Assembly (NCBI GenBank): GCA_043812195.1
Contig: JBDRML010000017.1
Span: forward strand, 1 to 45,561
Origin: Candidatus Woesearchaeota archaeon
Lineage (GTDB): Archaea > Nanobdellota > Nanobdellia > SCGC-AAA011-G17 > PNOQ01
Length of the DNA stretch: 45,561 nucleotides
Direction of reading: 5' to 3'
A program made the translations under genes and the position numbers. Numbering within the stretch: the stretch's first letter is position 1; each line of letters begins with the position of its first letter. Below the pieces are notes generated by a model. That model saw only the letters and a program-made list of their open reading frames with translations, was not told the origin of the DNA and did not search any database. Positions 2,010 through 38,487 of this stretch are shown here, piece by piece.

Positions 2010-3161
2010 ATGAACCCTCCAAAACCTTTTGAAACAGCAATTATTGCATCCCCTGAAGATTTCTCGCCAATCAGAGAAGACTTTAAAGTTATTGGAGCAT
2101 TCAATCCAGGAGTCACAACAGTAGAAACCGATCAGGGTTTAGAAACAATTTTATTTGTAAGAGTTGCTGAAACTCCTCGGAAAAGGATGCCTGGCAAAAT
2201 TTTACTGCCTTATTTCCATATACTAAATGAAGAACAATTACCCTCCAAATTGGATTATGATATTGTCGATAGAAAAGCATATATAAAAATTCGTAAAAAA
2301 GAAGTCACTCCAAAAAAAGGACCGATTAGGTTAAGACATATTTCATTACCTAGAATGGTTGTATTGAATGCGGATAGAAAATTAACTGAAAGGTATCAAG
2401 AACCTGCCATATCTCCTTCATGGGAATTTGATAGGTTCGGACTTGAAGATGTGAGGATAACTCATCTAAAAGATGGGAGATTTGTAATAACTTATGCTAC
2501 ACCTCATAGAAATTATGGAGTTTATAGTTCTATTCTGACTACTGATGATATAAAAGAAACCTCAAAGTTGGAAAGAGTAATATTAGAAAATACTCCTCAT
2601 CAAGAAATTAGGGGAAAAGATGTTGCTTTATTCCCAACAAAAATTCCAAGCCCAGCAAAATCAGAATCTGTGGACAAAGGGCAACTAATTTATGCGTCAT
2701 TTATACGCCCTAATGCATTCTTTGATATAAGTGTTCCTGGTATCTGGATCTCTTATTCTCCTGATCTTGTACATTGGGGACAAGATCATAGATTGATAAG
2801 TAGTGAGAATGGCGAAATAACAGGAACAGGAAGTCCTCCTGTAAAAAGACCGAAGGGATGGATAGCAGCATACCATGAAACAACAAGAAACGAAAAAGGA
2901 AGAACAAAATATGTTACCAGATTGATGACTCTTGATTTAGAAGAACCATGGAAAGTATTGCATAAAAGTCCAATTTTGCTAGACCGAGAAGATTTCAGAG
3001 AGCTTTTGCCAAAAAACGGGTATGTTCCAGACACAGTTTTTACTACAGGAATGGTAATTGATGGAGACAGAACAGACTTGTACCAAGGAATAGATGACCA
3101 ATGGACAACACGTGCCTCATTTTATACAAAAGATATTGATAAATTCGCACGAACAAAATAA
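2010..3161 (+). CDS. GH130-family glycoside phosphorylase/hydrolase (5-bladed beta-propeller)
   Basis: GAFNPG, GLEDVRIT, KDVALFP, SPDLVHW, YH, GYVPDTVF motifs. Confidence 0.8.
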   Translation: MNPPKPFETAIIASPEDFSPIREDFKVIGAFNPGVTTVETDQGLETILFVRVAETPRKRMPGKILLPYFHILNEEQLPSKLDYDIVDRKAYIKIRKKEVTPKKGPIRLRHISLPRMVVLNADRKLTERYQEPAISPSWEFDRFGLEDVRITHLKDGRFVITYATPHRNYGVYSSILTTDDIKETSKLERVILENTPHQEIRGKDVALFPTKIPSPAKSESVDKGQLIYASFIRPNAFFDISVPGIWISYSPDLVHWGQDHRLISSENGEITGTGSPPVKRPKGWIAAYHETTRNEKGRTKYVTRLMTLDLEEPWKVLHKSPILLDREDFRELLPKNGYVPDTVFTTGMVIDGDRTDLYQGIDDQWTTRASFYTKDIDKFARTK

Positions 3162-28166: not shown

Positions 28167-29381
28167 ATGACAGCAACAGTCGTAGTAGGAATGCAGTATG
28201 GTGATGAAGGTAAAGGAAAAGTTGTAGATTTTTTAGCTAAAAATGCAGATTATGTTGTAAGATATCAAGGCGGAAATAATGCTGGCCACACAGTTGTAAT
28301 TGATAATGAACAAACAATTCTTCATTTAATACCATCAGGAATTTTTCATAATAAAATTTGTGTTCTAGGAAACGGCATGGTTTTAGATTTAGATAAATTA
28401 AAAGAAGAGATAGAAACACTAGAATCTAAAGGAATATCTGTTCTTGAAAATTTACTAATTAGTGAAAATGCACATATTATTCTTCCAGAAGACGTTAAAA
28501 GTTCTAAAAAAGATAGAATAGGAAGCACAGGAAGAGGAATAGCACCAGCATATACAAATAAAAGTGCAAAAACAGGATTAAGAGTTAGAGACATTTTAAA
28601 TATCGAAGATAAAATAGATGGAATTGACATCAGAGCAAGAAATAGATTAAGCATATATAAAAAATATCTAAAACAATATGAATATTTAAAAGATAATGTT
28701 GTTAATGTTTCAAAAGTTTTAAATGATGCCATAGAAGAAGGAAAAAATATTTTGTTTGAGGGTGCCCAAGGAACAGGTTTAGACATAGATCATGGACAAT
28801 ATCCTTTTGTAACAAGCAGTAATTCAACAGCAGGAGGTGCCTGTACAGGATCTGGAATTGGTCCAACTAAAATAGACAAAGTTATAGGGATATGCAAAGC
28901 TTATATAACAAGAGTAGATAGAGAAGGAGAAAGTCCATTAACTACACAATTAGATGACAAAACCGGGAAAAAATTAAGAGAGAATGGACATGAATACGGC
29001 GCTACAACAGGAAGACCAAGAAGATGTGGTTGGTTCGATGCAGTCTTAGCAAATCATGCAGTAAGAGTAAACGGAATATCAGAAGTTATTCTAACAAAAT
29101 TAGATGTTCTGGATGGATTTAAAAAATTAAAAATATGCACACATTATGAATTAGACAGAGAAAAAATTGAAGATTTCCCAACAGATTCTATTGTACAAAG
29201 AAGATGCAAACCAATTTATGAATCTATAAAAGGATGGTCAAAGACTGTTAAAAAAGCAAAAACATTCAACGAACTACCAGAAGAAGCAAGAAATTATATT
29301 AGAAGAATAGAAGATCTTATGCAGACAAAAGTTTCATATGTCACAACAGGACCTAAAAGAGACCAAATAATTGAAATCTAA
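28167..29381 (+). CDS. purA: Adenylosuccinate synthetase
   Basis: QYGDEGKGK, GGNNAGHT, EGAQG, GATTGRPRRCGWFD, TKLDVL. Confidence 0.98.
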   Translation: MTATVVVGMQYGDEGKGKVVDFLAKNADYVVRYQGGNNAGHTVVIDNEQTILHLIPSGIFHNKICVLGNGMVLDLDKLKEEIETLESKGISVLENLLISENAHIILPEDVKSSKKDRIGSTGRGIAPAYTNKSAKTGLRVRDILNIEDKIDGIDIRARNRLSIYKKYLKQYEYLKDNVVNVSKVLNDAIEEGKNILFEGAQGTGLDIDHGQYPFVTSSNSTAGGACTGSGIGPTKIDKVIGICKAYITRVDREGESPLTTQLDDKTGKKLRENGHEYGATTGRPRRCGWFDAVLANHAVRVNGISEVILTKLDVLDGFKKLKICTHYELDREKIEDFPTDSIVQRRCKPIYESIKGWSKTVKKAKTFNELPEEARNYIRRIEDLMQTKVSYVTTGPKRDQIIEI

Positions 29382-30064
29382 TAATCACCTATTTTTTTCT
29401 GAGTTTTATTTTTAACCTGATTCTTAAAAGTAGCCCAAGTTTTTCTAAATATTTCAGGATGCTTTTCCCAATTCTCTTTAATGAATTTCTGTGTTATAGC
29501 ATTACTAGGATAACCAGGACCAACTTCACCATATTTAGCATTAATTTTATCCATCTCTCTATCTCTAGTAACTTTAGCTAATATAGAAGCAGCAGAAACA
29601 ACAGGATATTTTACATCTGCCTTATGCTCAGCTATAATCTCTTTATCTTTATTTTTAAGATAAACTTTAAGATAATCCACATAAGAACTTTTATTATTAC
29701 TAGGACAATCTAAAATTGTAGTATCAGGATTAAATTCATTTATAATTAAAGCAGATTTCACAGCTTCCAATTTATTCAAATTTAATTCAACAGAATTCAA
29801 AGCATCATCAATTTCTTTTGGTTCAATAACAATTATTCTAGTACTCTTAGCAATATCAATAATCTTATCAAACATTTTATCTCTTTTATCACGAGTCAAT
29901 AATTTAGAATCTTTTACACCAAGAGCTTTCAGTTTAGCTTCATCATTCTTACTAATCATTACTCCAGCCATTACCATTGGTCCGATGACAGGCCCTCAAG
30001 GCAAACCTAAAACTATTGTTTAAGGTTTTTTACCCGCCTCATCGATCCCAAGTATTGTAGTCAT
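29378..30064 (-). CDS. rnhB: Ribonuclease HII, two exons (30064-30030 and 29996-29378; 217 aa after splicing)
   Basis: Exon 1 MTTILGIDEAG(K) joins exon 2 GPVIGPMVMAGV...GVKDSK...HKAD..YPVVSAASILAKVTRD...GYPS once 33 nt are removed. Confidence 0.92.
29997..30029 (-). other. 33-nt BHB mRNA intron in rnhB
   Basis: Central helix GGGU/GCCU, bulges AA|A and UG|A, intron stem AAACCUUAAAC-AAUA-GUUUUAGGUUU, exon pairing CGAUGA/UCAUCG; in-frame TAA inside. Confidence 0.88.
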
Positions 30065-30118
30065 ATAATTATTAAAATGAAAAGCTTTTAAAAGCTTGTG
30101 ATTGACTGAAAAACCCAA

Positions 30119-30163
30119 AAAGGTCGACAAGGTTGACAACCACCAGCGAAAGTTCTTTATAAA
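30119..30163 (+). promoter_or_regulatory. Conserved 45-nt upstream element of nuclease gene (tandem AAGGTnGACA + BRE/TATA)
   Basis: AAAGGTCGACAAGGTTGACAACCACCAGCGAAAGTTCTTTATAAA, 19 nt before ATG 30183; 39/45 identical to 36049-36005 (-). Confidence 0.85.
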
Positions 30164-30182
30164 GAGGAAATAATATTGGTGT

Positions 30183-31139
30183 ATGGATAATAAACTAATA
30201 GAAGATTTTACTAAAAATAAACTTCCAACAAAAGAAATAGCTAAAAAATATAAATTAACATTAGAAGTTATAAAAAAAATATTAATAAATAATTTAGGCA
30301 GGGAGAAATATCTCAAATCAGCACATTCTATTGGAGGGATAACCATTGCTAGAAAATTAAAAAATCCCCTTTACAAAGAAACATATTCTATGAATTTAGG
30401 CAAAGCAGTATCAAAGGCAATTAAACAAAAAATGAAAAATCCAAAATTTAGAAAAATATGGATAGAAAAATCAAAAGATGCTTCAAAAGAAGGGAGAAAA
30501 AGAATAAATACTCTTTTAGAAATTGATCCAATATTTAGAGCTAAATGGGTTAAAAATTGTGCCAAAGGCGGGAATAAAACGTTTAAGTTAAAAATAGGAG
30601 CATTTGATAGGGCAAATATAAAAAAAAGGAAAAAAGGAGCATTAATCGGTTTAAAAAATACAAAAAGAAAAATGATAGGACCTAAAAATGAAAAAATGTA
30701 CAATAATTTTGAAAGATATATAGCAAATTTAATTATTGAAAATAAACTAAATTATTTTTATGAAAAAATATTCCCAGACAAAAATGCCAATGGTTTCATA
30801 AGCTGTGATTTTGAGATTAATGTTAACAATAAAAAATTACTTATTGAAGTAACATGTTGGGATAAATATAAAGATAAATCATTACAAATAAACAAAAAAT
30901 TTCAAATATTAAAGAATCAATTAGTTAATTTTGAGTATATCCTAGTTGCACCCACAAAAAGGCAAAGCGAAAGATATTCAGAATTTTTAGATAAAGAAAT
31001 AATATGTTTTAGCTCATACGAATTTAAAAAAGAATTGAAAAAAATAGCGAGGGACGGATTTGAATTCGCCGGTAATTCACTTAAGCGAAATACCTCCGAC
31101 GACCTCCGGGTTATGAGCCCGACGAGCACTCCTAATTGA
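30183..31139 (+). CDS. Free-standing homing-endonuclease-like protein (HTH + basic repeats + PD-(D/E)xK/Vsr-like domain)
   Basis: KEIAKKYKLT HTH; KNPKFRKIW/DPIFRAKW repeats; FERYIANLI...YFYEK...CDFEI...LIEV nuclease-like core; very basic. Confidence 0.7.
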   Translation: MDNKLIEDFTKNKLPTKEIAKKYKLTLEVIKKILINNLGREKYLKSAHSIGGITIARKLKNPLYKETYSMNLGKAVSKAIKQKMKNPKFRKIWIEKSKDASKEGRKRINTLLEIDPIFRAKWVKNCAKGGNKTFKLKIGAFDRANIKKRKKGALIGLKNTKRKMIGPKNEKMYNNFERYIANLIIENKLNYFYEKIFPDKNANGFISCDFEINVNNKKLLIEVTCWDKYKDKSLQINKKFQILKNQLVNFEYILVAPTKRQSERYSEFLDKEIICFSSYEFKKELKKIARDGFEFAGNSLKRNTSDDLRVMSPTSTPN

Positions 31140-31176
31140 GCAAATATAGCAAGTATATTTTCTGCTCCACCTCGCT
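31045..31176 (-). tRNA. tRNA-iMet(CAT) with two introns (31161-31136 at 15/16; 31095-31065 at 53/54)
   Basis: Spliced 75-nt sequence AGCGAGGTGGAGCAG|TTAGGAGTGCTCGTCGGGCTCATAACCCGGAGGTCGTCGG|TTCAAATCCGTCCCTCGCTA; A1-U72 pair, GGG/CCC anticodon stem, no encoded CCA; both introns fold as BHB-type motifs. Confidence 0.93.
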
Positions 31177-31350
31177 ATCTAAAATATAGAACAATTTGTT
31201 CTTTTTAAACCTTCTGATTTAATTGGCTTTGCACAATAAGTCTAGTCTACACAAAAACTAAAAGTTAGATAAATTAGTAAAAGGAAATCCTAATTATTTA
31301 GAAATAGTAAGTATAGATTTTTAAGGATAGGGGCAGAAAACTAGATTGGT

Positions 31351-32067
31351 TCATTGGAGAAACTTATTAGCGTTGAATGTTTTAACAACCTGCCGCTTTT
31401 TAATAATATATTCTTGAATTCCAACGATAATTAAACCTACTATCAGTAAAATTATTCTAGCGTAAGTAGCAATGTATATACCATCTACACCTATGTCACC
31501 AATATAACTGTAAGCAGATTTAGCCAGAGTACCTAATAAAATAGGAAGGATAAATCTCTTAATTCCAATTGGTCCAGCTGCGACTATATAAGTTAATTCA
31601 TCATCTGGTGTAAATGGCAAAATATAAACTATTAATAAAGTAATTGGACCAACTTTTTGAGTGATCTGATCAAAACGATTGTAAAATCTAGGAGCCACAA
31701 CTTTTTTTAATAAGGGTCTTCCGTATCTTTTTACTAAAAAAACAATTAAAAATAATCCAATGGTAGTGGCAAGAAAATTTATGATAAAACCAACATGCCC
31801 GCCAAAGATATAACCCGCTGCGATTAGAATAAACGTGTTAAAAAGGGGTGTGAGAGTTACATACACTACTTCAATAAAAAAGTAAATTACCATTCCCCAT
31901 TGTCCACTACTTTCAACAACTACTTGTAGACTTTCCCGATCAATATACTTAGTAAAGATGACCGCAGCCACTATCATTAAAGCAATATAAACGCATATGA
32001 TAATTATACTTTTTAGCTTTGTTTTTTCAGAAATTATATTTAAACCATCTTTATATTTTTCTTTCAT
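31351..32067 (-). CDS. DedA/TVP38/VTT (SNARE-associated) membrane protein
   Basis: Multiple TM segments, AAGYIFGG...G...KRYGR, ILPFTPDDELTYIVA. Confidence 0.85.
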   Translation of the reverse strand: MKEKYKDGLNIISEKTKLKSIIIICVYIALMIVAAVIFTKYIDRESLQVVVESSGQWGMVIYFFIEVVYVTLTPLFNTFILIAAGYIFGGHVGFIINFLATTIGLFLIVFLVKRYGRPLLKKVVAPRFYNRFDQITQKVGPITLLIVYILPFTPDDELTYIVAAGPIGIKRFILPILLGTLAKSAYSYIGDIGVDGIYIATYARIILLIVGLIIVGIQEYIIKKRQVVKTFNANKFLQ

Positions 32068-32140
32068 CTTCCTTCACACCACTCACACATTACCTCTTTT
32101 TGCATAAATTTAAAAGTTATTAACCTTTTTATTATTTTCT

Positions 32141-32333
32141 ATGGAGTTCAACAAACATTATCACAAACATTCTAACATAGAAATTACATTTTCAATGATC
32201 AAAAGGAAATTTGGAAATAATGTACGATGTAAATCACTAAGAAACCAACCAAACTAATGAGGTTTTATTTAAGATTTTAGCCCACAATATTGTTGTTTTA
32301 ATCCATGAGTTATTTGAACTCAATATTAAATAG
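32141..32333 (+). pseudogene. Frameshifted C-terminal transposase remnant
   Basis: EFNKHYHKHSNIEITFSMIKRKFGNNVRCK / TNEVLFKILAHNIVVLIHELFEL aligns with EYLQHYHARSNAETTVHMIKSKFGDRVRSK...VNEVLCKIIAHNICCVIMEMNEL of 20741-21997. Confidence 0.88.
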
Positions 32334-32477
32334 ATTTTGATAAAATAGCGAAAAATCACCTGCACAAAAAGTGATTTAATTATTGTACAAAGCCATTTAA
32401 TTTTCCAAACCTTTAAATATACAAAATTAAAATTAATAATATGTTTATCAAAGAAATAAAGGAGGTGAAAATTCTAG

Positions 32478-32879
32478 ATGGCTACTGATTTATCAAGTTG
32501 GTTACCATTTGCAGGAATATTAGCAGGTGCAGCAATTACAGTTTTAATCATTGTTGGTATAGCAGTTTACATTTATATGGCAATAGCATTAATGACAATA
32601 GCAAATAAAACAAAAACACCAAACGCATGGCTTGCATGGATACCCATAGCAAATTATTATTTAATGACTCAAATTGCAAAAGTGCCTTGGTGGACGTTCT
32701 TTGCATTCTTATTAGTGTTAATACCCGCAATTGGAAGCTTAGCATTCTTAGCAGTTTCTGTTTGGTGGTGGTGGAGAATTGCAGAAGTAAGAAAGAGACC
32801 TGGTTGGTTAGGCATATTAACAATAATTCCAATAGTAAATCTAATAATTGTTGGAGTGCTTGCTTGGGCAAAAAAATAA
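32478..32879 (+). CDS. Membrane protein (DUF5684-like)
   Basis: ALMTIANKT...AWLAWIPIANYY...PWW...PGWLG.L..IPIVN repeat pattern; GGAGGTGA SD. Confidence 0.7.
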   Translation: MATDLSSWLPFAGILAGAAITVLIIVGIAVYIYMAIALMTIANKTKTPNAWLAWIPIANYYLMTQIAKVPWWTFFAFLLVLIPAIGSLAFLAVSVWWWWRIAEVRKRPGWLGILTIIPIVNLIIVGVLAWAKK

Positions 32880-32934
32880 TTTTTTCTTTTCTTTTTTCCA
32901 AAACTTTTATAAACATCTAAATAAATAATTTTAT

Positions 32935-33147
32935 ATGGCAGTTAAAAAAGTAACTTGGCTATTAGTATTATTAATGTCAATCTTCTTCGGATGGTTTGGC
33001 GTTGATAGATTTATCTTAGGACATATATTCTTAGGAATATTAAAACTAATAACATTTGGTGGTTTAGGAATATGGTGGATTATAGATGTAATCTTAATAG
33101 CAAGTAAATATAATTTCAAAAACATCAAATGGGTAGAAAACCAATAA
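32935..33147 (+). CDS. TM2-domain membrane protein
   Basis: FFGWFGVDRFILG...GILKLITFGGLGIWWIID. Confidence 0.9.
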   Translation: MAVKKVTWLLVLLMSIFFGWFGVDRFILGHIFLGILKLITFGGLGIWWIIDVILIASKYNFKNIKWVENQ

Positions 33148-33207
33148 TTTTTTCTTTTTTCCCCACTATTACATAAAACTTATATATAGATATTTTTTTA
33201 TTTCTTT

Positions 33208-33471
33208 ATGTTAAAAAATTTGATTATAGGTTTGTTTATAGGATATATAGGAATTATCCTTTATGAAGGTGGTTGGACATCTATTAAAAAAGTTTTTGGA
33301 AAGGAAATTATAGTAAGAATAAAAAAATGGCATGTACACCATAGCATGTATGGCATTGCATTATTAACAATCTGGCCATTTTTTATGAGTCCGCTAATTT
33401 TCGGTGCTGGTGTGGGTGTAATATTAAGGCATACGCAACAAGATGGATTTACATTTATAGGGAAAAATTAA
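33208..33471 (+). CDS. Hypothetical membrane protein
   Basis: Hydrophobic segments, WHVHHSMYG motif, TATA upstream. Confidence 0.6.
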   Translation: MLKNLIIGLFIGYIGIILYEGGWTSIKKVFGKEIIVRIKKWHVHHSMYGIALLTIWPFFMSPLIFGAGVGVILRHTQQDGFTFIGKN

Positions 33472-33488
33472 AATTTACCAAAAGAAAT

Positions 33489-34769
33489 CTATTTCAAACT
33501 AACATATCCGATTAATCTCCAACGTCCACCAACCATTCTGGAGATTGTAATTCTATCTTCTTTTCTCAAACTAACTGGTTTTTTTAAATTAACTTCAATA
33601 AAATCCTTTCCGACACCAATAACACTTCCAACCGTAACCGAAGAATTAACATTCATCATTAATATTTCACCTAACTTAATAGGATCAACCTTTAACTCAT
33701 CCTTAGAACCAACAACTCTATCTAATAAATGCACTTCTAATTTTAATTTTTCATAAGTTTCCAACATATGGCCTTCTAATCCAACTACATTTCCAACCAA
33801 ACTATCAGATTTAACAATAGAAGGATCTAATTTTGTTAAAATACTTGAAGATCCACCAGGAGCAATTTCTTCAACTTCTTCTCCACCCCACACAAAACCA
33901 ACAATTTGAGTTTTAATAGGAATCCAAACAATCTTATTATGTTTCTCTTTTTTCAAGCCAGGTCTTATCTCAATCAATTCACCCCTCTTAAAAATACCTT
34001 GTGCCATAGCTCCTCCCAAAACACCACCAGAAATTTTCTTTATTGGAGTTCCAGGTTTATTCACATCAAAGGATCTAGCAACATAAAAAATCGGATATTC
34101 ATTTTTCTTTCTTTCAGGAGTCTTAAATCTTTCTTGTATGATTTGTATTAAAGCATCAATATTAACATTATGCTGAGCAGAAATAGGAATTATCGGAGCA
34201 TCTTCAGCAATAGTACCTTTCAAAAAATTCTTAATCTGATTATAATTTTCAAACAATTCATCTTTACTAATCAAATCTATTTTATTCTGAACAACAATTA
34301 TATCTTTAATTCCACTTATTTCCAAAGCCATCAAATGCTCTTTAGTTTGTGGTTGAGGACAAGGTTCATTAGCAGAAATTAATAATAAAGCAGCATCCAT
34401 AATTGCAGCTCCAGATAACATAGTAGCCATTAAAGTCTCATGACCTGGTGCATCAATAAAAGAAACTTTTCTTAAAGGAACATTATCAGTTTTACATTTA
34501 GCACATTTAAAACTAGAACCATAACATTCAGGTTCCGAACATTTAACACATTTATAAAAAGTTGTATCAGCATAACCTAATTTTATAGTAATTCCTCTTT
34601 TTAGTTCTTCAGAATGGACATCAGCCCAGCGCCCAGAAAGAGCTTGAGTTAGAGTAGTCTTACCATGGTCTACGTCTTTGGTGTGGAAAAGTTTCCCTTT
34701 CTAATGTCCAACAAGACCAATGCTAATTTCAGGCACTAGTTCTTTTTCCTTATTTTTAATTTTTTTCAA
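33489..34769 (-). CDS. eif2g: Translation initiation factor aIF2 gamma subunit, two exons (34769?-34706 and 34675-33489; about 416 aa)
   Basis: VPEISIGLVG-H|VDHGKTTLTQALSGRWADVHSEELKRGITIKLGYAD, Zn knuckle, DAPGHETLMATMLSGAA, QNKID, RWRLIG. The start (TTG 34769, after GAGGGGG) is uncertain. Confidence 0.92.
34676..34705 (-). other. 30-nt BHB mRNA intron in aIF2gamma
   Basis: Central helix UUGG/CCAA, bulges AC|A and AG|A, intron hairpin GAAAGG-GAAA-CUUUUC, exon helix UGGUCUUG/CG(U)AGACCA; in-frame TAG inside; splicing gives GGA CAC GTA (G-H-V). Confidence 0.9.
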
Positions 34770-35984
34770 TCTGTTTTCTAACCCCCTCAATCTTTCCAAT
34801 TTTTTAGGATGAGATATATAAGGAATAATCTTCTCCCTAAAACTTATAAAACTATCCCTTTTGATTCTTATGTCATATTTTAATGTTGAAGATCGTTTTG
34901 TTTTACAATATTTGCGAGATATATAAGATTCAATTTTATCCAATTTTAATAGATATTTATACAATAAAGCAGTTTTTAAGAGTTTTATAATTTTTTTATT
35001 ATCTTTATATTTTTGGGTTCCAAAAGCAATAGAAATATCGAAACTATCTAAAGAAATACTTCCTTCTGCTTCGATTAATCCAGCGAAAAAAGCATGTCTA
35101 ACAGATTTGGGAGAATAATATAAAATAGAAATTAAATTTTTATTAAAATGATCAAATACATATTCTTTAAGAATTCTGTTGCAAACTTCAACACGATAAA
35201 CATAATTACCATATTGATGTTTATTAATAGAAATTACTTCAGCATATTTAGTTATTTCTTTATTTGGTCTAAAATCTGGTTTTAAAATAAGTTGTACTTT
35301 TGGATCAACTTGGTTTAATCTTAATATCAAATCTTTAAATTTTTGTATAAATTCTATATTTTTATTGCTTACGCCAACCTTTCTAGCCCCCCCACATTTA
35401 TCACCAACCCATTTACCAAATTCTTTAGCAAATTTTTCATTAAAAACCACCACATTTGGAAGCGGTCTATCTTGATAATTATCTTTTCTTTGGTTGGTTA
35501 TTTGTTCTGATGTTATATAAAAATATTTATTTTTGTTTAAATTAGTTGGTGGTTTGATAAATATATCATTTTCAAATATATTAAAGAAAATCCTATCTGC
35601 TAAAGATCTTCTAAAAGTAGATACTTTTTCTTTTTCTAAATCTACTATTGCTGGAAGTATCAAAGAATGTTCCCTACCACTCGTACCAACTTTTATCTTG
35701 TTTAAATTTTTTTCGAATTGTTTTAAGTTTATTTTAGTTAATTTAGAAATACTAATAATTTCTTTAGATGACATATATCTCTTGTATTTTTTATTATCAC
35801 ATATTTCAAAACCCCTTCTTAATCCAAATAAGTGCCTAACATTTATTCCAATATGTTTAGCAACAATTCTCCAATCTCCAAATTTCTCCCTAAGTAAAGA
35901 AAATACAAAATTTCTGAATTTACCATCTAGGTAAAACATAGCAGTCGTATTTAACAAATTTCTAAGTGATATTTTTACTAACAT
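34701..35984 (-). CDS. Free-standing LAGLIDADG homing-endonuclease-like protein, in frame with aIF2gamma exon 1 and ending at the intron TAG
   Basis: Degenerate motif 1 FAKEFGKWVGD, motif 2 FFAGLIEAEGSI, C-terminal IIPYISHPKK; N-terminal HTH-like segment; last residues are aIF2gamma's KELVPEISIGLVGH. Confidence 0.8.
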   Translation of the reverse strand: MLVKISLRNLLNTTAMFYLDGKFRNFVFSLLREKFGDWRIVAKHIGINVRHLFGLRRGFEICDNKKYKRYMSSKEIISISKLTKINLKQFEKNLNKIKVGTSGREHSLILPAIVDLEKEKVSTFRRSLADRIFFNIFENDIFIKPPTNLNKNKYFYITSEQITNQRKDNYQDRPLPNVVVFNEKFAKEFGKWVGDKCGGARKVGVSNKNIEFIQKFKDLILRLNQVDPKVQLILKPDFRPNKEITKYAEVISINKHQYGNYVYRVEVCNRILKEYVFDHFNKNLISILYYSPKSVRHAFFAGLIEAEGSISLDSFDISIAFGTQKYKDNKKIIKLLKTALLYKYLLKLDKIESYISRKYCKTKRSSTLKYDIRIKRDSFISFREKIIPYISHPKKLERLRGLENRLKKIKNKEKELVPEISIGLVGH

Positions 35985-36004
35985 AACTTAAAAATAAGAA
36001 ATGA

Positions 36005-36049
36005 TTCATAAACAACTTTCGGTGGTGTTTGTCGACCTTGTCTACCTTT
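36005..36049 (-). promoter_or_regulatory. Second copy of the 45-nt nuclease-gene upstream element
   Basis: AAAGGTAGACAAGGTCGACAAACACCACCGAAAGTTGTTTATGAA, 20 nt before ATG 35984. Confidence 0.85.
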
Positions 36050-36067
36050 GTAAACATTTAATAGTAG

Positions 36068-36481
36068 TTACTCTTGCTTTCTTTCTTCTGAACTTTCTTC
36101 TTTTCCACCGAAAATTTCTCCTATTCTTTTAGAACCTTCTTTTACAATCTTTAAATTTATTTGAGAAACATCTTCATCAATTAAATTTCCCCTGATAGTT
36201 TTTCTTTGTTTAATGCCTTTATCTTTAGTCTTGCCACCAACACCTTTAATAAATAAAGGTCTTTTTCTTGCAACACCTTCTATATCTTTTCTTAAAGGAA
36301 ATCCATCATTATCACTTCCACCAGTTATTTCTAACTCATATCCAGATAAACCAAATGAATTACCACTTACTTTCTCTCCCAATTTCTTACTTCTAAAAAC
36401 ATCAGATTCAGCATCAGTTGTTTGCTTTTTATAACTTTTCCCAGTTTTTGGATCATTTATATTTAATTTAAATTCTGCCAT
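36068..36481 (-). CDS. rps6e: 30S ribosomal protein S6e
   Basis: FKLNINDPKTGKSY, GYELEITGGSDNDGFP, RKTIRGN, QINLKIV. Confidence 0.97.
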   Translation of the reverse strand: MAEFKLNINDPKTGKSYKKQTTDAESDVFRSKKLGEKVSGNSFGLSGYELEITGGSDNDGFPLRKDIEGVARKRPLFIKGVGGKTKDKGIKQRKTIRGNLIDEDVSQINLKIVKEGSKRIGEIFGGKEESSEERKQE

Positions 36482-36759: not shown

Positions 36760-38487
36760 TTACACTCCCCACGTTGGATTTTCTTTCCTTTTAATTTCAG
36801 CTATCTCCTTTAACAAACTGATTTCTCCACCATTTAAATACTTTTTCAATTCCCTTGCCTTCCTAAATTCACTCTCATTCATGTCAGAATAGAGAATATC
36901 ACCTTCTTTTACCTGTCTACCAGCTATAACTCCTGGTAAAGAAGCAGCTACCTGATCTCCTTTTTTAGCCTCATTTATACTTTCTTTTTCTTCTTGCAAA
37001 CTTTTTAGATTACATAATTTTTTACCATCTACTTTAATTAATTGAGTATTAGTTTTTGCTGTTCCTTCTAAAACTTCCACACCAACAACAGCAGGATTAC
37101 TTTGCCTAAAAATATGTCCTTTCAAAACTTGAATCTTAAATGGTCTTACTAATTTTTCAATTTCTTTGTTTTCAATTCTCTTAGTTTCATCTTCTAGCCA
37201 TTTTTCAATATCTTCTATTATTTTATAAACAACTTCATGTTTAATTACTTTCACACCTTCTAATTTTTCTAATTGCTTAACATTAAAACCTAAAACAACT
37301 TTATTCAAGGGATTCTCATCAGAAGAAGCTTCCATTAAATCATTCTTAGTAATATCACCAATACAAGCTCTCTTAATACTAATATTTTTTTGCTTCAATA
37401 AATTAATTAAAGCTTCTAAAGAACCCAAAGTATCAGCCTTTACAACCAAACCATCACCTTCAGTTTCAATTAAAACCTCTTCAATTTCAGATTTGATTTC
37501 TTCTTCAAGCTTTTCAGCATTCTCATTTGCAACTCTAATAGGCATTCCACACACAACATCTTCCATATCAGTAGCAGAAATCTTAACAGCACATGCAGCA
37601 TGAACCTCATTAACAGCTTTTAATTTATTTTGTTCAACTAAAAATAAACATTTAACCTTAGTTTTAATTATTTTATTCTGAGCTCCAATAAACAAAACAT
37701 CATTCTGTTTAACACTCCCATCATAAATAACACAATCAATTGCTTTACCAACTCCTTTTTCTTCACTAACTTCTAAAATAGTTCCCTTACCTTGACCCTC
37801 AACATTAATTTTCAAACTCTCTTCCAAATATTTTTGAGCCAATCCAGTAATAACCATTAATAATTCAGCAAATCCTTCTTTTCTTTTAGCAGATGTTGGA
37901 ATAATAGCAATTTCTTTTGTATAATCTTTAACTCTATCAAATCTCTCACCATTAAATCCATATTCAGCTAATCCACCTATAATATTATACATCTTACCTT
38001 CAAAATCTTGGATAACTCTATCAGATTGATCATTTATAGATTCCAATAAACTGACATCAGAATCAGATCTCCATCCACCAATTTTATCTATCTTATTAGC
38101 AGCAATAACAAAAGGAGTCTTAGCATTTTTTAAAATCTCAATAGCCTCTTTAGTCTGAGGTTTTAATCCTTCTGTAATATCCACAACTAAAATAGCAATA
38201 TCAGCAATACTACCCCCTCTTTTTCTTAAAGTAGTAAATGCCTCATGTCCAGGACTATCAATAAATAATATTCCAGGAATAGTCAATTCAATTTTTTTTA
38301 ATAAATCACCACAAATTTTCTTAATATTATCAATAGGAACTGAAAAAGCAGAAATACACTGAGTTATACTCCCAGCTTCTTTTAAAGCGACAGAGGTGCC
38401 TCTAACCAAATCAAGTATAGAAGTCTTACCATGATCCACATGCCCCAATAAAGTAATTATTGGTTGTCTTATTACTACTTTTGCCAT
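36760..38487 (-). CDS. infB: Translation initiation factor aIF5B (IF2)
   Basis: RQPIITLLGHVDHGKT, DSPGHEAF..LRKRGG, NKID, KADTLGSLEAL, FRQSNPAVVGVEV. Confidence 0.97.
   Translation of the reverse strand: MAKVVIRQPIITLLGHVDHGKTSILDLVRGTSVALKEAGSITQCISAFSVPIDNIKKICGDLLKKIELTIPGILFIDSPGHEAFTTLRKRGGSIADIAILVVDITEGLKPQTKEAIEILKNAKTPFVIAANKIDKIGGWRSDSDVSLLESINDQSDRVIQDFEGKMYNIIGGLAEYGFNGERFDRVKDYTKEIAIIPTSAKRKEGFAELLMVITGLAQKYLEESLKINVEGQGKGTILEVSEEKGVGKAIDCVIYDGSVKQNDVLFIGAQNKIIKTKVKCLFLVEQNKLKAVNEVHAACAVKISATDMEDVVCGMPIRVANENAEKLEEEIKSEIEEVLIETEGDGLVVKADTLGSLEALINLLKQKNISIKRACIGDITKNDLMEASSDENPLNKVVLGFNVKQLEKLEGVKVIKHEVVYKIIEDIEKWLEDETKRIENKEIEKLVRPFKIQVLKGHIFRQSNPAVVGVEVLEGTAKTNTQLIKVDGKKLCNLKSLQEEKESINEAKKGDQVAASLPGVIAGRQVKEGDILYSDMNESEFRKARELKKYLNGGEISLLKEIAEIKRKENPTWGV

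Follow-up and report, generated by a model that had tools for sequence, protein, structure and literature searches.

The stretch of 45,561 nt analysed here (the window) corresponds to contig C17 in an archaeal genome of 938 kb (29.5% G+C, 90% complete, 45 contigs; G000). On its minus strand lies an aIF2-gamma gene that is interrupted in its P-loop codons by a 30-nt insert and overlapped at its 5' end by an open reading frame (ORF) of 427 amino acids (aa) of the LAGLIDADG endonuclease type. We describe this pair as a candidate two-part mobile element, an endonuclease gene and a bulge-helix-bulge (BHB) mini-intron, and compare it with a second insert in the rnhB gene of the same window. Throughout, G numbers denote genomes of the same archaeal order, L numbers metagenome loci or contigs, and X numbers sequencing runs; slashes mark cut or junction points within sequences and separate the two strands of a helix. 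The aIF2-gamma locus contains the following features:

33489..34675, minus strand: aIF2-gamma exon 2, stop included (Pfam eIF2_C and GTP_EFTU)
34676..34705, minus strand: 30-nt canonical BHB mini-intron in the aIF2-gamma P-loop codons (GH/VDHGKT), containing TAG (assigned by fold and comparison)
34706..34769, minus strand: aIF2-gamma exon 1, covered by the last part of the endonuclease ORF in the same frame
34701..35984, minus strand: free-standing 427-aa LAGLIDADG-type endonuclease gene, stop TAG 34701-34703 included (borderline Pfam match, homologues, motifs)
34751..36071, minus strand: 1321-nt segment with promoter motif and endonuclease ORF, absent in an empty allele (a contig of run X3 that joins 34750 to 36072)
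36005..36049, minus strand: promoter-like motif copy 2, identical to copy 1 (see below) at 39/45 positions (87%)
36068..36481, minus strand: ribosomal protein S6e gene, flank (Pfam Ribosomal_S6e, 4e-36)

On the minus strand the gene reads ..GTT GGA C, then the 30 nt, then AC GTA GAC CAT GGT AAG; in protein terms ..ELVPEISIGLVGH is followed by the insert with its TAG and then by VDHGKTTLTQA, and the N-terminus in relatives has the form M..K..ELVPEISIGLVGH. Two codons are candidates for the start, TTG at 34767-34769 and GTG at 34734-34736, both lying within the endonuclease ORF. A match to aIF2-gamma was found in 61/61 genomes searched, own genome included, and the interrupted copy is the single match in its genome. 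Folds were read by hand against the standard BHB layout (outer helix, 4-bp helix, 3-nt bulge, inner hairpin, helix partner, 3-nt bulge, outer helix), and cut sites were placed by the rule known from tRNA, where the splicing endonuclease EndA cleaves after the second base of each bulge. The aIF2-gamma insert fits this geometry exactly and is a canonical BHB intron, with a central helix UUGG/CCAA, 3-nt bulges ACA and AGA, an outer helix GGUCU/AGACC and an inner hairpin. Cutting by the rule yields the in-frame junction GGA C/AC GUA and restores GHVDHGKT; the intron placed in this way (34676-34705) is shifted two bases rightwards from the naive cut and leaves the same protein. The genome also encodes the predicted splicing machinery, with one gene for an EndA catalytic domain (PF01974, 93.8 bits, G000:C3:1706-1966) and one for RtcB (PF01139, 480.7 bits, G000:C8:182-1417).

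The reading frame of the 427-aa ORF continues into aIF2-gamma exon 1 as far as the TAG within the insert, and such an in-frame overlap ending at a stop inside the intron is found in 6/7 homologues. Unspliced RNA would therefore yield the free endonuclease, and spliced RNA read from the upstream start would yield a fusion protein. Two motifs are invariant in 7/7 homologues, FGKWxGD(R/K)CGG (including G190, G194 and D195) and AGLxEAEGS (including E307), and we read FGKWxGD and AGLxEAEGS as two LAGLIDADG helices with acidic residues in a putative nuclease. D195 presumably aligns with the catalytic Asp of I-DmoI, an example of a LAGLIDADG enzyme encoded in an archaeal BHB intron. The gene also shares with homing endonucleases a presence/absence polymorphism at a fixed site and a patchy distribution.

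Intron and endonuclease at aIF2-gamma across relatives

To place the locus in context we used the genomes of the order, among which the closest belong to other genera (aIF2-gamma identity 64-72%), and metagenome data, the DNA runs containing the stretch coming from groundwater or unspecified metagenomes. The P-loop motif GHVDHGKT is uninterrupted in 28 of the 29 aIF2-gamma loci of relatives, the exception (G039) having an intein after GHVDHGK. The 80 metagenome loci comprise 75 uninterrupted genes, one window copy, one intein, one gene cut by a contig end and two genes with the insert (L103 and L111). We take the uninterrupted form, which in many of these loci has S6e adjoining aIF2-gamma, as the ancestral state. 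Nine of these 80 failed the search pattern, namely the two introns, the window copy, the intein, the truncated gene and four uninterrupted variants or pattern misses. Eight further relatives with short open frames were fetched, and one (G029) carries the insert; two loci at contig ends (L088 and L120) and one whose P-loop lies outside the fetched stretch (G057) were left out of these counts.

A search with the 427-aa protein through 240 genomes of the order returned five strong homologues (G154, G041, G219, G214 and G128; E 5e-77 to 5e-47, identity 40-45%), which places the family in 5/239 other genomes and in four taxonomic families beyond the window's own. All five lie directly upstream of an insert-bearing aIF2-gamma gene, and metagenome contig L103 shows the same arrangement of endonuclease and intron; four weak matches (E 2e-9 to 7e-6) stand in other contexts. 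The endonuclease gene is thus upstream of seven of the nine intron-bearing alleles (own, L103, G154, G041, G219, G214 and G128), and the remaining two (L111 and G029) have the intron without it, S6e adjoining aIF2-gamma. No endonuclease without intron was found at aIF2-gamma among about 110 uninterrupted alleles, as far as their flanks reach. The endonuclease family is therefore tied to intron-bearing aIF2-gamma genes in 7/7 cases across five families of the order, and the pairing of the two parts that had been proposed for this gene from the sequence of the window is well supported: the survey of relatives that the sequence-only reading had suggested gave the predicted outcome, intron and endonuclease co-occurring. 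Horizontal transfer of the pair may be suspected from its patchy distribution.

The eight introns that we aligned (own and seven others) are 29-32 nt long, and the ninth (G029) is 30 nt. Since only two of the eight lengths are multiples of 3, the inserts do not encode read-through peptides. Structure was judged from constrained folds and shuffles of each sequence, the inner hairpin being misaligned by MAFFT. All eight keep 5' GUUGG AC/A and 3' CCAA AG/AC GU and adopt the canonical BHB fold at 0-1.9 kcal/mol above the minimum energy, and for six of the eight at most 5% of 1000 shuffles fold equally well. The inner hairpins covary, their sequences having diverged with pairing kept. Most of the introns are flanked by the exon signature GGTCT.GTTGGACA[CT]GT[AT]GACCA, and exon flanks are near-identical among intron-bearing alleles of different families. 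Neither this signature nor the GGTCT/AGACC pair of the outer helix occurs in any of 103 uninterrupted alleles, which indicates that the RNA structure constrains these flanks or that they travelled together with the intron.

Positions 29300-36100 were compared with contigs from four runs, two of DNA and two of RNA. A contig from DNA run X1 equals the window exactly across the intron into the endonuclease gene. A 1662-nt contig from DNA run X3 (98% identical, with 7/425 aligned bases different) is an empty allele of the kind that the sequence-only reading had suggested looking for, with S6e directly adjoining aIF2-gamma as in many relatives. In addition to the 1321-nt segment listed above, this contig is without 30 nt between 34668 and 34703, i.e. 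without the intron. Two of its differences, at 34707 and 34710, are synonymous, lie beside the intron site and abolish the UUGG strand of the central helix.

Other elements have entered the same motif. Inteins follow GHVDHGK in G039 (locus L029) and in L129, four codons from the mini-intron site, and G043 probably has an intein as well, as judged from a 985-aa open frame whose sequence was not read. Selfish elements have therefore targeted the aIF2-gamma P-loop repeatedly. Two genes upstream, aIF5B (window 36760-38487, minus strand) has an uninterrupted P-loop (LLGHVDHGKTS) despite the common motif; the element is thus specific to aIF2-gamma.

The rnhB insert, the initiator tRNA and the promoter-like motif

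The second insert of the window lies in rnhB, the gene for RNase HII, upstream of which are a divergent nuclease-like gene and the gene for initiator methionine tRNA (tRNA-iMet):

29378..29996, minus strand: rnhB exon 2, stop included (Pfam RNase_HII, 9e-33), beginning A GGG CCT GTC, (K)GPVIGP
29997..30029, minus strand: 33-nt BHB mini-intron in rnhB between DEAGK and GP, with in-frame TAA and TGA (assigned by fold)
30030..30064, minus strand: rnhB exon 1, MTTILGIDEAGK, last codon split (read from the minus strand)
30119..30163, plus strand: promoter-like motif copy 1, with the ATG of the 318-aa ORF about 20 nt downstream
30183..31139, plus strand: free-standing 318-aa nuclease-like gene whose 3' end overlaps the opposite-strand tRNA-iMet (helical N-terminal part and PD-(D/E)xK-fold C-terminal domain, by model)
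31045..31176, minus strand: tRNA-iMet gene, 132 nt, two non-canonical introns (by comparison with the genes of 26 intron-poor relatives)
about 31065-31095, minus strand: tRNA-iMet T-arm intron, 31 nt (by comparison)
about 31136-31161, minus strand: tRNA-iMet D-loop intron, 26 nt (by comparison)

The minus strand reads ATG..GGT AA, then 33 nt, then A GGG CCT GTC, corresponding to MTTILGIDEAGK, the insert with TAA and TGA, and GPVIGPMVMAGV. The insert folds with a central helix GGGU/GCCU, bulges AAA and UGA(GG) and a long inner hairpin, and the predicted junction GGU AA/A GGG (GKG) is in frame and restores DEAGKGP. The geometry of both inserts hence agrees with the earlier suggestion of stop-containing BHB introns of 30-33 nt in rnhB and aIF2-gamma. 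The rnhB insert is present in a contig of a second metagenome with one substitution that keeps the affected pair as G.U, and four relatives (G014, G005, G028 and G045) have an intron at the same codon. In G005 the frame of a 344-aa LAGLIDADG ORF (26.1 bits) continues into rnhB exon 1 and closes at a stop codon within the rnhB intron, and in G014 a 244-aa ORF with a TrmB-type helix-turn-helix occupies the site.

The 318-aa protein has no Pfam match, and none of the eight proteins of its family has a Pfam domain; one homologue found in the search for this family bears the source label 'Nanoarchaeota archaeon'. An AlphaFold model from a 9-sequence alignment reached a mean predicted local distance difference test score (pLDDT) of 83.7 (a single-sequence model, pLDDT 47, was not used). 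Its residues 175-277 form a helix, three strands, a helix and a strand, the alpha-beta-beta-beta-alpha-beta core of restriction-endonuclease-like proteins. Foldseek returned six PDB matches at E <=0.001 (best E 2.7e-4), to R2 retrotransposon proteins, Can2 and Cdn1, and weaker matches that include Bax1, R.BspD6I and other restriction enzymes, NucS and a P. abyssi repair endonuclease, all of which we take to share the PD-(D/E)xK fold. D209, E222 and K228 are invariant in the family and are candidates for the catalytic D...(D/E)xK residues, but the middle motif reads E-x-T, with the lysine 6 residues on. The model thus suggests a nuclease-like protein of the PD-(D/E)xK fold, and a nuclease-like gene does stand next to each insert as had been noticed from the sequence: this one divergent and 154 nt from the rnhB insert, the 427-aa ORF, with its two motifs, co-oriented and overlapping.

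The genomic neighbours of the 318-aa family point to a different partner. The tRNA-iMet gene was missed by ARAGORN and by the Rfam gathering threshold, no tRNA being called in 45 kb; in intron mode the genome-wide ARAGORN count is only about 30 tRNAs, many of them intron-bearing. Contigs of other organisms depart from the window exactly at 31096. Homologues of the 318-aa nuclease occur in G006, G053 and G060. In these genomes as in the window, the nuclease gene converges on tRNA-iMet and meets or overlaps the 3' end of the tRNA gene. The neighbouring tRNA-iMet gene has a D-loop intron for 4/4 genomic copies of the nuclease. Across the 27 tRNA-iMet genes compared, this intron occurs in five (own, G006, G060, G029 and G023), and in nuclease-free genomes 21/23 compared genes are without it. 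The tRNA-iMet gene lies 70-150 nt upstream of rnhB in at least 10 relatives, indicating that the nuclease was inserted between ancestral neighbours, and only in the own genome and in G053 is the nuclease also next to rnhB. The 318-aa nuclease is therefore probably a partner of the tRNA-iMet D-loop intron and not of the rnhB intron, as far as gene neighbourhoods can tell. LAGLIDADG ORFs adjoin tRNA-iMet genes with a T-arm intron in three other genomes (G019, G009 and G145).

We accordingly doubt that the 318-aa nuclease and the rnhB mini-intron form a second homing unit, the pairing originally suggested for rnhB. Such a unit would fit the short distance of 154 nt between nuclease start and intron, and also the spacing of the flanking genes: rnhB is interrupted in 3/3 cases (own, G014 and G005) in which over 1 kb, including a nuclease-like gene, separates tRNA-iMet from rnhB, and uninterrupted in 14 loci with a spacing of 70-880 nt (G054, with its rnhB start masked by N, was excluded from this count). 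The homologue in G053, however, adjoins an uninterrupted rnhB reading GVDEAGRGPVIG, those in G006 and G060 adjoin tRNA-iMet and not rnhB, and the four relatives with the rnhB intron (G014, G005, G028 and G045) have no homologue of the nuclease at E <=0.001, the inserted genes of G005 and G014 being of another kind. Most likely, the rnhB intron of the window either is an orphan or arrived together with a nuclease since lost.

Both nuclease-like genes of the window are preceded by the promoter-like motif, which in copy 1 consists of a direct repeat GGTCGACAA GGTTGACAA followed by CCACC, CGAAAGT (by eye like a B recognition element) and TTTATAAA (TATA-like by eye). A 29-nt pattern of the motif with up to three mismatches matched the genome four times, versus no match for the reversed control, and its 23-nt core GGTYGACAAGGTYGACAAMCACC has 10 copies in the own genome (C1:25734, C3:17337, C17:30122, C17:36024, C25:10135, C26:3660, C29:98693, C29:110291, C31:15653 and C45:66589) and none in 60 relatives; a shorter core has 15 copies. 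Downstream of every copy come the TATA-like TTTATAAA and, at about 50 nt, a start codon. Behind eight of the 10 full copies stand nuclease-like ORFs, five of them over the cut-off of Pfam LAGLIDADG_3 and the other three being the 427-aa ORF (22.0 bits), the 318-aa ORF and an ORF on C31 with LAGLIDADG-like motifs by eye only. A shorter-core copy precedes a minus-strand ORF on C26 (LAGLIDADG_3, 17.8 bits), and shorter copies also precede a DEAD/Helicase_C helicase (C21) and an 862-aa ORF that is helicase-like by eye (C29:105001). A blastp comparison among the four motif-led proteins and an aIF2-gamma intein revealed no close paralogy. The near-identity of the two 45-nt copies, as first noticed, is real, and the motif is neither private to these two genes nor a part of the unit: the endonuclease loci of homologues that were examined in other genomes, and the 60 relatives, are without it, which indicates that it is not a component of a mobile unit. 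The motif is a putative lineage-specific promoter or operator of the nuclease genes of this genome.

Other introns, inteins and LAGLIDADG genes of the genome

A naive genome-wide screen for BHB patterns gave 31,259 candidates without discrimination, both known introns barely passing the helix thresholds, and was replaced by a tblastn comparison of 1757 ORFs of the complete relative G025 with the genome. Matches were obtained for 685 ORFs, and the screen recovered both inserts, in rnhB and aIF2-gamma. An apparent insert in an ELP3-like gene on C4 was rejected because the sequence proved to be the region upstream of the start codon.

The same screen added two further protein genes with short introns or intron-like inserts. 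The cbf5 gene (G000:C16, about 92704-92720) has a 17-nt canonical BHB intron with a helix CCUU/AAGG and bulges AGU and AAA, the junction of which restores GHSGTL/DPGVTG. In the EF-2 gene (G000:C29, about 61385-65022) a 32-nt relaxed BHB-like insert lies between AHID and HGK, 9 nt before an in-frame intein that follows HGK, begins CIAPDS and has the LAGLIDADG motif FLRGYFDTDG.

Seven in-gene insertions of 1.3-1.55 kb relative to G025 (on C3 (two), C4, C21, C31 and C41 (two)) are probably inteins, the host frames on all five contigs having a LAGLIDADG motif. The tRNA-Ile(TAT) gene called by ARAGORN at G000:C29:46198-46924 contains a 635-nt intron with a 213-aa ORF and the LAGLIDADG motif CLRGIFDTDG, which seems to be the classical intron-encoded arrangement. 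Free-standing LAGLIDADG-like ORFs that overlap the start of the next gene are found at G000:C23:2550-3659 and C31:14321-15691; the former begins MTNILQFKDI, resembling the MNIIQFKDIS start of the phosphoenolpyruvate-synthase-like gene that follows, and the latter is flanked by PolB-like and FEN-1-like genes. No insert was seen in a RadB-like gene beside an endonuclease on C1. An RNase Z-like gene (G000:C3, about 2250-3134) has a single in-frame stop where a relative has Gly (..YCGE*TQPQ..), which may be a sequencing error, a pseudogene or a case of recoding.

A candidate two-part homing element and its alternatives

We consider it probable, from the comparative evidence, that the aIF2-gamma locus is a two-part selfish element whose endonuclease gene and BHB mini-intron home together. 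Part one would be the free-standing endonuclease gene with its two LAGLIDADG motifs, inserted after S6e and before the start of aIF2-gamma, and part two the 30-nt mini-intron in the P-loop codons 45 nt downstream. Alleles of aIF2-gamma without the intron would be cleaved by the endonuclease at or close to the position where the intron inserts, and repair from the donor allele would transfer both parts by co-conversion. The intron of a carrier would split the recognition site and so protect against self-cleavage, and host EndA and RtcB would excise it from the mRNA in vivo, restoring GHVDHGKT. Once fixed, the element could lose its endonuclease gene to decay and the harmless intron would stay. 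The same logic may apply within the order to the 318-aa PD-(D/E)xK-fold nuclease with the D-loop intron of tRNA-iMet, to LAGLIDADG genes with the T-arm intron of tRNA-iMet and to LAGLIDADG genes with the rnhB intron.

Several observations weigh against such an element. The seven paired cases are related, and one ancestral arrangement followed by many losses could explain them. No RNA run was listed among those containing the stretch, and the RNA contigs (runs X7 and X8) cross neither junction and, covering only 31099-31127, 33634-33824 and a few short pieces, are uninformative on splicing. The assignment of the endonuclease family is borderline: the 427-aa ORF scores 22.0 bits with Pfam LAGLIDADG_3 (PF14528; cut-off 22.5), four of the six family members scanned reach E <=0.01 with one over the cut-off (among four homologues, one at 23.2 bits, two under the cut-off and one without a match), and a profile search of PDB sequences with the family gave chance matches only (E >=0.29). 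The BHB of the rnhB insert is of a relaxed form because its 3' bulge has 5 nt in the minimum-energy fold, and a hand fit of the G005 rnhB intron to a canonical BHB failed. No nuclease gene adjoins the rnhB introns of G028 and G045 or the cbf5 intron, and the EF-2 mini-intron adjoins an intein that already disrupts its own target. Finally, because the two parts are 45 nt apart, their joint absence from the X3 contig also fits ordinary linkage within one recombination tract.

Some of these points would be expected if introns and endonucleases were independent residents of a hot spot, settling separately at conserved sites and standing together by tight linkage only. Nuclease-free introns (aIF2-gamma of L111 and G029, rnhB of G028 and G045, and cbf5), the inteins in the same P-loop (G039, L129 and probably G043) and the single recombination tract that could explain the X3 allele all fit such independence, and with so many LAGLIDADG ORFs in the genome some adjacency is to be expected. 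We nevertheless regard this explanation as unlikely, since the endonuclease family was never seen off an intron-bearing aIF2-gamma (7/7 cases, five families), intron-only alleles were seen and endonuclease-only alleles were not, which is the asymmetry expected from avoidance of self-cleavage, and the pattern recurs with unrelated nucleases at tRNA-iMet and rnhB.

Mini-introns might alternatively serve host immunity only, as resistance alleles that break the targets of endonucleases or inteins and are not mobilised by the neighbouring gene. Their positions at or near homing targets (the P-loop intein site GHVDHGK/T is four codons off, and the EF-2 intron is 9 nt before an intein) and their persistence without nucleases agree with this proposal, which overlaps the step of self-cleavage prevention in the two-part element. 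Resistance should, however, exclude invasion, yet seven of the nine intron-bearing alleles have the endonuclease, and the near-identical exon flanks across families fit transfer or a strong structural constraint; immunity as the sole explanation is thus improbable. It is very improbable that the inserts are kept in the RNA and reflect ribosome bypassing, broken genes or assembly errors: matching codons flank both inserts (CAU..CAU and CCU..CCU) with a stop after each, as in the bypassing of T4 gene 60, but bypassing would yield DEAGKKPV and GLVGHGKT where BHB cuts restore the universal motifs exactly, lengths of 29-32 nt and compensating hairpin changes fit RNA structure, the inserts recur in independent assemblies, and the interrupted aIF2-gamma has no second copy in the genome to replace it.

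The closest known parallel of the two-part element is the collaborative homing of phages. As described in PMC6083498, the psbA gene of cyanophage S-PM2 contains an intron and has the gene for free-standing F-CphI as its neighbour (Zeng, Bonocora and Shub 2009), and mobE of T4 is reported to promote homing of the defunct I-TevIII intron (PMC2790892). As with F-CphI and psbA, the nuclease gene at aIF2-gamma stands beside the interrupted gene and outside the intron, the intron has no ORF and is placed where cleavage of the carrier would be blocked, and both parts would move together. Unlike the phage introns, which are self-splicing group I ribozymes, the BHB introns of 29-33 nt would be removed by host enzymes, the hosts are cellular archaea, the nuclease ORF continues in frame into exon 1 with its stop inside the intron, and cleavage by the nuclease is a predicted activity. 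Since 29-33 nt of BHB leave no room for a ribozyme, this would be a variant of collaborative homing and not the described phage type, and by analogy the aIF2-gamma element can be read as its BHB-intron version.

Short BHB introns in archaeal protein genes have a precedent, the cbf5 pre-mRNA of Crenarchaeota, reportedly described by Watanabe in 2002. The cbf5 introns treated in Yokobori 2009 (PMC2738675) are 16-44 bp long, too short to encode a nuclease, and show patchy gain and loss. The introns described here are likewise short and nuclease-less, and the present genome has a cbf5 intron (17 nt) of its own; they differ in their targets (aIF2-gamma, rnhB and EF-2), in their small-genome archaeal host and in the candidate mobility partner adjoining them. 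BHB introns of archaeal rRNA and tRNA can encode LAGLIDADG homing endonucleases, as PMC2738675 states. These systems and the aIF2-gamma element have in common a LAGLIDADG enzyme, a BHB intron and homing at the DNA level (proposed here), but at aIF2-gamma the ORF is outside the intron, upstream of the start of the host gene. The inteins of P-loop GTPases are also LAGLIDADG-bearing selfish elements in the same motif, but are spliced out of the protein and have a nuclease domain within themselves. A literature search, with subscription journals and supplementary files outside its scope, brought up no account in which BHB introns are paired with free-standing endonucleases, in agreement with the sequence-only reading, which knew of no such EndA-dependent split homing unit.

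A broader proposal, which we put forward tentatively and do not favour as it stands, is that free-standing homing endonucleases are a general engine by which BHB mini-introns without an ORF are created and spread in the tRNA and protein genes of archaea. A nuclease family of its own would then stand beside each intron site, and the intron would be the self-immunity of the nuclease. Wherever the nuclease ORF extends into exon 1, the stop within the intron would act as a splicing switch, unspliced RNA giving the nuclease and spliced RNA the host protein. In the present genome the nuclease genes would in addition have acquired a common lineage-specific promoter or operator (10 full copies), the shorter core of which, before a DEAD-box helicase gene, could tie homing to DNA repair.

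For genome annotation such introns are a trap, making essential genes appear truncated and leaving tRNA genes undetected. The LAGLIDADG enzymes, which probably target P-loop codons, may be of interest to enzyme engineers. With the inserts described here, aIF2-gamma, RNase HII and EF-2 join a very short list of intron-bearing archaeal protein genes. BHB introns appear at new positions in tRNA genes and, rarely, in mRNAs, yet are too short for mobility genes of their own, and a neighbouring nuclease that tracks the distribution of the intron offers a concrete and testable mechanism for their spread at the DNA level, which would extend collaborative homing from the group I introns of phages to cellular archaea and to introns spliced by the host.

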